From: Escherichia coli
Lineage (GTDB): Bacteria > Pseudomonadota > Gammaproteobacteria > Enterobacterales > Enterobacteriaceae
Reading direction: 5' to 3' (one strand)
Assembly: GCF_003334255.1 (NCBI RefSeq)
Contig: NZ_QOWU01000095.1
Length of the DNA: 7,641 nt
This document shows positions 2,625 through 3,050 of the stretch, one piece after another. The notes beneath the pieces are model-generated. The model was not told where the DNA came from, did not search any database, and saw nothing but the letters and a program-made list of their open reading frames with translations. Within the stretch, counting starts at the first letter, position 1. Each line of letters starts with the position of its first letter. The translations under genes were made by a program, and so were the position numbers.

Positions 2625-3050
2625 TCAATGTACTGCCACAGCATTTCCTGCCGGGCCACCACGGTTCATCTGATTGAAACCGGCGATTGCCACTGCGACA
2701 AAATCATCAGCGTCTCTCACCAGTCGCTCCCGCGTCTCCACCAGCTCCCGAAAATAAGCTGAACTGTGGCTGCGCATTCTGGCCACCAGCAAAGGTGGCA
2801 TTGCCTTTTCGATCGCTGGTAACAACGCCTGAATTTTTTCAACTGCATCAGGGGTGTCTTTCTCTACCCAGCGGAAAATTTTCTGGGTATTGCGAGCCAG
2901 GGCTTCCGGATGGCTGTCGTCATACAGTTCCGGGAACGTCATTCCCAGCTCGAAATACGCTTTGGTAATTTTCGCAGCCGGTACTTTTTCGCCGTCCGGA
3001 TGCGCCCAGGCATTCATCGCCATGCGGATGTGTTCATGCTTGATTTTCAT
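2625..3050 (-). CDS. CII-like early regulator, YdaT family, 141 aa (MKIKHEHIRMAMNAW...)
   Basis: ATG at 3050 is preceded by AAGGGGGGA. It lies immediately downstream of, and overlaps, the cro-like gene. The MKIKHEHI N-terminus and the length match my recollection of Rac YdaT (140 aa). Recalled, not searched. Confidence 0.65.
   Translation of the reverse strand: MKIKHEHIRMAMNAWAHPDGEKVPAAKITKAYFELGMTFPELYDDSHPEALARNTQKIFRWVEKDTPDAVEKIQALLPAIEKAMPPLLVARMRSHSSAYFRELVETRERLVRDADDFVAVAIAGFNQMNRGGPAGNAVAVH

Follow-up and report, generated by a model that had tools for sequence, protein, structure and literature searches.

The closest described relatives of the immunity region analysed here are found in the prophages Rac and Qin of Escherichia coli K-12 and CP-933P of E. 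coli O157:H7. In Rac, the repressor gene, a Cro-type gene, ydaT and the replication genes follow each other in the same order as in the window, the whole 7,641-nt stretch of E. coli DNA that was analysed. The YdaT protein of Rac protects a box, ATGATTCATGAAAATCAA, from DNase I with the ydaT ATG lying in the spacer of the box, and YdaT bound at this box activates transcription towards racR up to 29-fold (PMC11879457). A YdaT-box and a reverse promoter activated by YdaT towards the repressor gene are also what we propose for the window, and the two loci share an identical block at the 5' end of ydaT and a TATGAT hexamer 20 nt from the box. In contrast, the YdaT proteins of Rac and the window are 33% identical, the two genes at the joint of K-12 Rac are separated by a 22-nt gap instead of overlapping, neither the Cro-type protein nor the repressor is related to its counterpart in the window, and the left arm carries kilR and sieB in place of ydfABC-dicF-dicB. 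YdaT of CP-933P is 87-88% identical to the window protein, with an identical recognition helix and the box at the same position, and its left arm also contains dicB. The high-affinity operator of CP-933P, termed OM, is TTGATT-N6-AATCAA (PMC9986795), and a promoter within a 120-bp fragment of the ydaS/ydaT junction, PRE933P, is likewise activated by YdaT (PMC8630535). CP-933P differs from the window in its 4-nt ATGA overlap, its perfect box, its different Cro-type gene of 100 aa and its repressor PaaR2, which is devoid of a peptidase domain and is followed by paaA2-parE2.

The Qin prophage shares with the window a 17-nt overlap, between dicC and ydfX, with the TGA at +15..+17, together with the left operon ydfA-ydfB-ydfC-DicF-dicB-ydfD and the downstream genes hokD, ydfU and Q. 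However, ydfX encodes a truncated and diverged YdaT of 96 aa, the box is degenerate (TTGAAC-N6-AATCAC), DicA has no S24 peptidase domain, and Qin is defective. Phage lambda shows the same gene order and logic, in that PRE runs antisense over the start of the activator's own gene: codons 3-8 of cII contain the CII site TTGCGTTTGTTTGC (TTGC-N6-TTGC), and PRE includes the cII start codon. Lambda differs from the window in possessing an N gene, boxA sites and a 118-nt spacer with rutA, nutR and rutB. Whereas lambda CII recognizes a direct repeat flanking the -35 region, YdaT would recognize an inverted repeat centred near -41.5, and the folds of the two proteins differ. The lambda-like phage HK022 lacks a functional N and achieves antitermination through put RNA; its stable two-stem put RNAs are located just downstream of pL and of cro. 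In the window, a comparison of folds with those of shuffled sequences gives no excess of structure for the pL leader (z +1.07) or the cro/ydaT junction (z +0.40), and no room is left after cro.

The window corresponds to the immunity region of a lambda-like prophage in E. coli, of the Qin/CP-933P/Rac kind. A prophage adjoining potC in E. coli strain G1/2 is 99.9% identical to it, and many further E. coli chromosomes are 99.6% identical. The cI-like repressor gene (3368..4006, plus strand) encodes 212 aa with HTH and S24 peptidase domains, matching phrog_4 over residues 2-211 as well as phrog_8558. Divergently from it, the pR-like promoter (TTGACT, 18-nt spacer, TAAACT; 3305..3334, minus strand), located by promoter scan and sequence, precedes an 80-aa cro-like gene of the P22-Cro/DicC type (3276..3034, minus strand; phrog_409), ydaT for a CII-like transcription factor of 141 aa (3050..2625, minus strand) and, as the next gene after a 71-nt gap, an O-like replication initiator gene (2553..1483, minus strand; phrog_3729, E 6.8e-257). 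A DUF977/Ren-like gene and small ORFs are the further minus-strand genes of the window. A search for repeat families identified two OR-type operators of the form GTTTTGATTNTTAAAC at 3306..3321 and 3352..3367, and an OL-type operator (4072..4090, plus strand) is a copy held in common with OR. The latter is followed by a pL-like promoter found by promoter scan (TTGACC, 17-nt spacer, TAAACT; 4091..4119, plus strand) and by ydfA (4299..4454), ydfB (4456..4584) and ydfC (4614..4832), all on the plus strand and assigned by RefSeq name and by matches to phrog_751, phrog_2061 and phrog_1744, respectively. DicF sRNA with its terminator hairpin (5174..5225, plus strand; Rfam RF00039, 76.7 bits with a gathering threshold of 48) comes before dicB (5400..5588), ydfD (5585..5776) and an exonuclease VIII gene, all on the plus strand, the last with its start only in the window. 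DicF was the sole family above its gathering score in an Rfam scan of the window at E ≤ 1, which returned nothing at the cro/ydaT junction; a ZEB2_AS1_2 match at 2843..2894 (E 0.25) was dismissed as a chance hit.

Direct reading of the minus strand across the junction gives CCAAGGGGGGATTCATGAAAATCAAGCATGAACAC. The cro-like ORF has its ATG at 3276, with GGAG upstream at 3286..3283; it ends ...CAA GGG GGG ATT CAT GAA AAT CAA GCA TGA with the stop codon at 3036..3034. Its product aligns with P22 Cro (PDB 1rzs) over residues 1-53 with an E-value of 2.5e-8, while the last ~27 residues form a non-conserved tail; as a small HTH gene, divergent from the repressor gene and first in the pR operon, it qualifies as a Cro-type gene. 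The ydaT gene starts with the ATG at 3050..3048, one base downstream of the cro frame, and its protein begins MKIKHEH. The two genes thus overlap at 3034..3050, by 17 nt spanning ydaT codons 1-6 (ATG AAA ATC AAG CAT GA), which in the cro frame encode the tail HENQA and the stop. The candidate Shine-Dalgarno sequence of ydaT is a run of six G at 3055..3060, 4 nt upstream of the ATG and within cro codons. RefSeq annotates the same arrangement in a 99.9% identical chromosome (L001), where the cro-like CDS (23027..23269) and ydaT (22618..23043) overlap at 23027..23043, also by 17 nt. The original prediction, that the cro-like stop lies inside the cII-like start and that the ribosome-binding site of the latter is encoded in the last cro-like codons, is borne out in both respects. 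The window protein is 97% identical to PDB 3c4r over residues 1-141 (E 1.8e-90) and 88% identical to CP-933P YdaT, PDB 8bt1 (E 1e-81), both chains aligning from residues 1-2, and it matches phrog_163, 'CII-like transcriptional activator', with an E-value of 1.9e-45. It belongs to the YdaT family (Pfam PF06254 / phrog_163) over its full length, with the HTH/POU-like domain, the tetramerisation helix and the invariant R60 and W61 of the family.

The junction had been regarded as an empty overlap, and this proved to be wrong. A variant YdaT-box, GGGATTCATGAAAATCAA on the ydaT strand and TTGATTTTCATGAATCCC on the plus strand (TTGATT-TTCATG-AATCCC, 3040..3057), spans the ydaT start codon, which is placed within the 6-nt spacer as described for such boxes (PMC11879457, PMC9986795), and a conserved -10-like hexamer is found next to it. 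The box agrees with TTGATT-N6-AATCAA at 10 of the 12 specified positions and is the sole site in the window with two mismatches or fewer; both mismatches fall in the promoter-proximal half, which reads AATCCC in place of AATCAA, a point that weighs against the reading adopted here. Its position corresponds to that of the footprinted boxes of Rac and CP-933P, the latter found at -7..+11 from the ydaT ATG in the CP-933P locus that we retrieved. The recognition helix of the window YdaT is identical to that of CP-933P YdaT and the same binding specificity is therefore expected; binding of YdaT to the variant box of the window is a prediction.

YdaT-dependent reverse promoter activity has been demonstrated in both CP-933P and Rac (PMC8630535, PMC11879457). 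In the window, a -10-like hexamer, TATGAT, is located at 3078..3083 on the plus strand, 20 bp beyond the box, and is the core of the PRE-like promoter that we propose. To place it among its relatives, cro 3' ends, taken in the direction from the box to cI, were grouped at <50% identity over the adjacent 60 nt, resulting in 16 clusters. TANNNT starts 20 or 21 nt past the box in 14 of these, its place at this offset being taken by CANNNT in the remaining two; once the hexamers are aligned, positions 2 and 6 are invariably A and T, respectively, and position 1 is T in 14 of the 16 clusters. Against a TANNNT background of ~2% at two adjacent offsets, the binomial p is near 1e-22, a value that is overstated as the clusters partly share ancestry. 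Several DicC-like tails, for example, are homologous to each other. The hexamer reads TATGAT in the window and Rac, TACAAT in CP-933P and TACGAT in Qin. Setting it at -12..-7 puts the box at -50..-33, with its centre at -41.5 (-42.5 for offset 21). An activator site centred near -41.5 is the usual geometry of class II activation. The -35 region is poor in the window (CCCCCC), as expected if the proposed promoter is activator-dependent. Bound YdaT at about -41.5 would activate the PRE-like promoter, and the transcript would start near 3088..3091 on the plus strand and run antisense through cro into cI. The start site and the activation by YdaT are predictions from the sequence of the window, supported by the conserved -10 element at fixed spacing.

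Published placements of the YdaT-activated promoter differ from this one. For CP-933P, OM was described as 'downstream of PRE933P', covering the transcription start. As deduced from its primers, however, the published PRE933P-gfp reporter is 120 bp long and extends from the box by 18 bp towards ydaT and by 84 bp towards ydaS; with so little sequence available towards ydaT, the YdaT-dependent promoter must sit on the ydaS side, which fits TACAAT. For Rac, the activation was assigned to PracR4, about 190 bp away, in experiments that mutated the box, a change that does not separate a box-proximal promoter from PracR4 (PMC11879457). A plus-strand promoter-like site of the window at 3233..3262, ~185 bp from the box and comparable in this to Rac PracR4, was considered as PRE and is retained as a weaker alternative, its 9/12 match being at chance level. 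About as likely as not is the broader proposal that a class-II-type promoter, with the box at about -41.5 and TANNNT 20-21 bp beyond, is built into the cro/ydaT joint throughout the YdaT family, Rac included. If true, it would replace both 'activation from about 190 bp' in Rac and 'box downstream of PRE' in CP-933P, and would account for the retention of the hexamer by all the unrelated cro alleles. It would also mean that a change between six and seven G in the G-run alters the Cro C-terminus and the spacing from box to -10 together. The fixed distance between box and -10 offers a simple, testable geometry by which YdaT would induce synthesis of the repressor. At 3187..3203, a weak hairpin with a T-run on the plus strand could lower the level of PRE-type transcripts.

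The overlap was compared across relatives in two surveys. The first comprised 86 sequences with nearly identical ydaT joined to several unrelated kinds of cro, of which 85 junctions were scored: 59 have a 4-nt overlap (ATGA), 25 a 17-nt overlap with the tail IHENQA and stop, and one a 1-nt overlap. The second covered 202 related phage loci of three YdaT subfamilies, namely those of the window, of Rac (33% identical) and of Klebsiella (48-100% identity with the YdaT of a Klebsiella phage); a query with a five-member alignment recovered close relatives only, and the diversity came from Rac-type and Klebsiella-type queries. Here the overlap is 17 nt in 67 loci, 4 nt in 90 and 1 nt in one, the remainder having gaps of 3 to 53 nt. 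The upstream proteins of the 17-nt loci in this survey have at least 16 distinct C-terminal tails, all ending in HENQA and the stop. The 17-nt class includes dicC/ydfX of K-12 Qin and Klebsiella phage ST405-OXA48phi1.2, whose YdaT is 56% identical, while ydaS/ydaT of K-12 Rac belongs to the loci with a gap. The 17-nt overlap is not a chance event, as it recurs with at least 16 tails in 67 of 202 loci. The overlap is a trait of the family, the compact cro/ydaT joint is ordinary and already described in Qin, Rac and CP-933P, and the likeness to Qin-type prophages pointed out in the original prediction extends to the identical overlap of dicC/ydfX.

Most E. coli matches with a different cro gene end at position 3055 of the window, and the aligned junctions consist of unrelated sequence up to GATTC-ATG. 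From there on, the conserved 5' block of ydaT, GATTC-ATGAAAATCAAGCATGA, is identical in Rac and the window; the first eight ydaT codons show 96% nucleotide identity between the two, compared with 42% for the rest of the gene. The conserved unit consists of the GATTC before the ATG and the first eight ydaT codons, and its ATG-proximal part, GATTC-ATG-AAA-ATC-AAG-CAT-GA, serves three roles. First, it provides the start of ydaT, with each cro allele bringing its own Shine-Dalgarno sequence just upstream. Second, it closes both other frames, by ATGA at +2..+4 and by TGA at +15..+17, the latter made by the invariant His5-Glu6 codons CAT GAR, so that any recombined cro allele ends 4 or 17 nt into ydaT; the G6 allele of the window enters the frame that stops at +17. 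Third, it carries the YdaT-box, an inverted repeat for the YdaT tetramer. Because the block closes both frames, the length of the overlap is set by ydaT and the frame of the arriving cro and is not special to this cro. With both alternative frames closed, recombination can exchange cro alleles regardless of their frame, and the repeated occurrence of 4-nt and 17-nt overlaps is thereby explained. Consistent with this, two loci (L022 and L037) carry the cro allele of the window with G7 instead of G6, and this single base switches the overlap class within the same allele, giving the tail NQGGDS and stop and a 4-nt ATGA overlap. Rather than a specific adaptation, the overlap is a side effect of a mosaic joint, as the same ydaT occurs with 4-, 1- and 17-nt overlaps.

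Taken together, we estimate at roughly 75% the probability of the combined reading that this is an immunity region of the Qin/CP-933P/Rac kind with a standard cro/ydaT joint, a YdaT-box with a PRE-like promoter, and no N or nut. The joint as start of ydaT, operator and establishment promoter, and the absence of N and nut from prophages of the Qin/Rac/CP-933P type, were already known; the explanation of the 4-nt and 17-nt overlaps by closed frames and the conservation of the -10 at a fixed distance from the box are new here. For the window, the overlap flagged as empty is instead a dense control element comprising the start of the CII analogue, an operator and a predicted establishment promoter.

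The best of the alternatives, although a doubtful one, is that the 17-nt overlap evolved for translational coupling that fixes the ratio of Cro to YdaT, either by re-initiation at the ydaT AUG, 14 nt upstream of the TGA at 3036..3034, or by the ribosome unfolding a hairpin that hides the Shine-Dalgarno sequence. The ribosome-binding site and the start of ydaT do lie inside cro codons, and ydaS-ydaT of Rac is one bicistronic transcript devoid of a separate ydaT promoter (PMC11879457). In the minimum-free-energy fold, moreover, the G-run pairs with an upstream AAUCCGCC segment, but the fold of the junction is no better than that of shuffled sequence (z +0.40). The same ydaT works at 4-nt and 1-nt overlaps, and that of K-12 Rac at a 22-nt gap. 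In addition, one base in the G-run is sufficient to switch the class within one cro allele, and the 17 nt are dictated not by cro but by the codons CAT GAR of the invariant His5-Glu6. Some translational coupling is likely in every junction class, with nothing specific to 17 nt, and we retain the by-product of a mosaic joint as the explanation of the overlap.

The consequences for early antitermination were then considered. The spacer between the cro-like and cII-like genes is -17 nt in the window, against +118 nt with rutA, nutR and rutB in lambda. Uninterrupted translation leaves no Rho loading site of the tR1 kind at a junction. With no gap between the translated cro and ydaT, neither a nutR nor untranslated RNA for a tR1-like Rho terminator is present. 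The original prediction of no room for tR1 or nut elements is therefore right as to the missing untranslated spacer, but the junction does accommodate the YdaT-box and the -10 element. The prediction had also stated that no N-like gene is visible and that ydfA/B/C-like genes occupy the position of lambda N. Both statements stand: ydfA, ydfB and ydfC are the first genes after the pL-like promoter with its OL-type operator, and a PHROG search returned no antiterminator-family match among the window proteins, these three included, and no N in the parent prophage. A scan for arginine-rich motifs in ORFs of at least 35 aa from the window, the parent prophage and the phage Tritos, in which lambda N scored positive as a control, detected no free-standing arginine-rich ORF, all of its hits being alternate-frame ORFs within known genes.

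The boxA/boxB search suggested together with the prediction was run and found no boxA and no nut-like hairpin. Exact boxA (CGCTCTTA / GCTCTTTA) is absent from 47.6 kb of L001 around the window; with one mismatch allowed, two copies occur in the window, both antisense, and none on the early sense strands, while both lambda nut boxA copies were recovered by the same search. The only motif common to both early sense strands is a 14-nt sequence, TAACGCGAAAGCGC, at 634..652 and 4961..4979, of which one copy is located within an ORF at a distance of 2.6 kb from pR; it was rejected as a nut pair, having a 3-bp stem and no boxA nearby. Folds of the cro/ydaT junction, of the pL leader and of the 71-nt gap between ydaT and the O-like gene do not surpass those of shuffled sequences and give no grounds for claiming a nut-, put- or attenuator-like structure. 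Two scans for intrinsic terminators on the pR sense strand within the window detected none, though both also missed the known DicF terminator. The latter has a long loop and a short T-run.

Beyond the window, L001 encodes a Q-type antiterminator (16378..17199; phrog_127 and phrog_25523) with a strong terminator just downstream (16297..16278), the arrangement of Q-type late antitermination. Of the homologues of N and Q proposed to be sought elsewhere in the prophage, N is thus missing and Q is present. A strong intrinsic terminator behind hokD (19008..18991) separates the early genes from Q, and within the left operon the 3' hairpin of DicF acts as a Rho-independent terminator (PMC9438474). A further relative, the phage Tritos of E. 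coli LF82, has an identical ydaT, a 4-nt cro/ydaT overlap, the same left arm and no annotated N, and two strong terminators are found upstream of its Q, behind hokD and behind a second moron. Tritos forms plaques and was propagated, and the N-less architecture therefore supports lytic growth; vB_EcoS-813R8/640R1, considered for the same purpose, are predicted prophages with host flanks, and Tritos was used instead. The strong terminators upstream of Q imply that read-through or extra promoters must exist, which leaves room for unrecognised antitermination. Accordingly, the prediction that the operon runs without lambda-style antitermination holds for the cro-ydaT-replication segment in the window, but it does not take account of Q and of the hokD and DicF terminators beyond this segment. 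Independence of N is plausible for the early operon as a whole and may extend beyond the window.

An unrecognised processive antitermination, by a put-like RNA or by a small protein such as YdfA, YdfB or YdfC, is improbable. The hokD terminator between pR and Q in the parent prophage and the two terminators in Tritos would give such a system a function, as would the DicF terminator, which precedes dicB, the exonuclease gene, xis and int (PMC9438474), and YdfA, YdfB and YdfC are proteins of no known function in the N position. However, leaky termination or internal promoters would suffice at these terminators. Neither boxA on the sense strands nor an ORF with an arginine-rich motif in the early operons was detected, the pL leader, the junction and the ydaT-O gap fold like shuffled sequences, and no Rfam family besides DicF reached its gathering score. 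The spacer between ydfC and dicF is strongly structured (z -2.99), but this structure is already explained by the processing of DicF by RNase III/E.

Finally, it is scarcely credible that the overlap is an artefact of annotation or sequencing, with ydaT starting elsewhere or a true G-run of G7 creating an ATGA joint: an in-frame ATG does exist at 3122 and would give 165 aa, but it is not credible as the ydaT start because homology begins only ~5 nt before the ATG at 3050, the sequence upstream of 3055 not being conserved with other ydaT loci, while every family member, including that of Rac at 33% identity, begins MKIKHE or MEIKHE and the crystallised proteins begin at the same residue; and homopolymer runs are error-prone and the G7 form is known, yet at least 15 further upstream tails share the same stop, and in the first locus set this cro allele has G6 with the 17-nt overlap in 13 cases and G7 in 2.

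The cro-like gene (3276..3034) and ydaT (3050..2625) overlap by 17 nt on the minus strand, and a run of G residues at 3055..3060 occurs in two forms, G6 and G7, in cro alleles that are identical elsewhere, the G7 form being present in two related loci (L022 and L037). The added G changes Cro from 80 aa to 77 aa with an altered C-terminus, shifts the cro/ydaT overlap class from 17 nt to 4 nt, and lengthens the distance between the YdaT-box variant (3040..3057) and the -10 element (3078..3083) of the proposed PRE-like promoter from 20 nt to 21 nt. At 2782..2799 the plus strand carries a terminator-like hairpin (GCCACCAGCAAAGGTGGC, then ATTGCCTTTT), antisense to ydaT and inside its 3' half. 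In lambda, the antisense RNA oop ends in cII at the equivalent position; no promoter was identified for the hairpin in the window.

The full repressor ORF is intact, encoding 212 aa with an N-terminal HTH domain (3368..4006, corresponding to 23361..23999 in the E. coli G1/2 chromosome locus L001), and phage repressor profiles match it across residues 2-211. In both G1/2 and O157:H7 TW14359, the RefSeq annotation covers no more than the repressor's C-terminal 112 aa, as a 'LexA family protein'. An operator-like 16-bp near-palindrome, GTTTTGATTNTTAAAC, is found twice at pR/pRM (3306..3321 and 3352..3367), and a further copy of this type (4072..4090) adjoins the pL-like promoter. The half-site of these near-palindromes contains TTGATT, which is also the half-site hexamer of the YdaT-box. 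Because the repressor ATG at 3368 comes immediately 3' of an operator copy, the sequence suggests that the cI message is leaderless, similar to that of PaaR2 of CP-933P, for which a leaderless message has been shown.

In the left operon, the ydfC-dicF spacer together with DicF (4833..5235) folds at -148.5 kcal/mol, far more stable than its shuffles (z = -2.99), a structure that fits the way RNase III/E is known to process the dicBF transcript. Between DicF and dicB, a match to the Rfam sRNA STnc100 at 5237..5377 scores 38.8 bits (E = 7.8e-6), below the gathering score of 47, and is enclosed by a long-range stem of 19 nt with 95% complementarity (5235..5253 with 5364..5382) just 5' of the dicB start.

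On the pR sense strand, strong intrinsic terminators precede Q in phages without N: in the G1/2 prophage behind hokD (L001 19008..18991), and in the phage Tritos (L087) behind hokD and behind a second moron (36238..36251 and 38103..38116). Within the O-like gene, GTGAC(A) repeat clusters (2127..2165 and 2387..2425) and an inverted repeat with a 13-bp stem (2039..2069) look like origin iterons plus an ori-associated palindrome, and lambda likewise carries its ori inside O. Compared with the G1/2 chromosome, which is elsewhere 99.9% identical, the window has a 7-nt insertion at 1069..1075, towards the 3' end of the DUF977/Ren-like gene, shortening its ORF to 123 aa (1071..1442) from the 140 aa in RefSeq.
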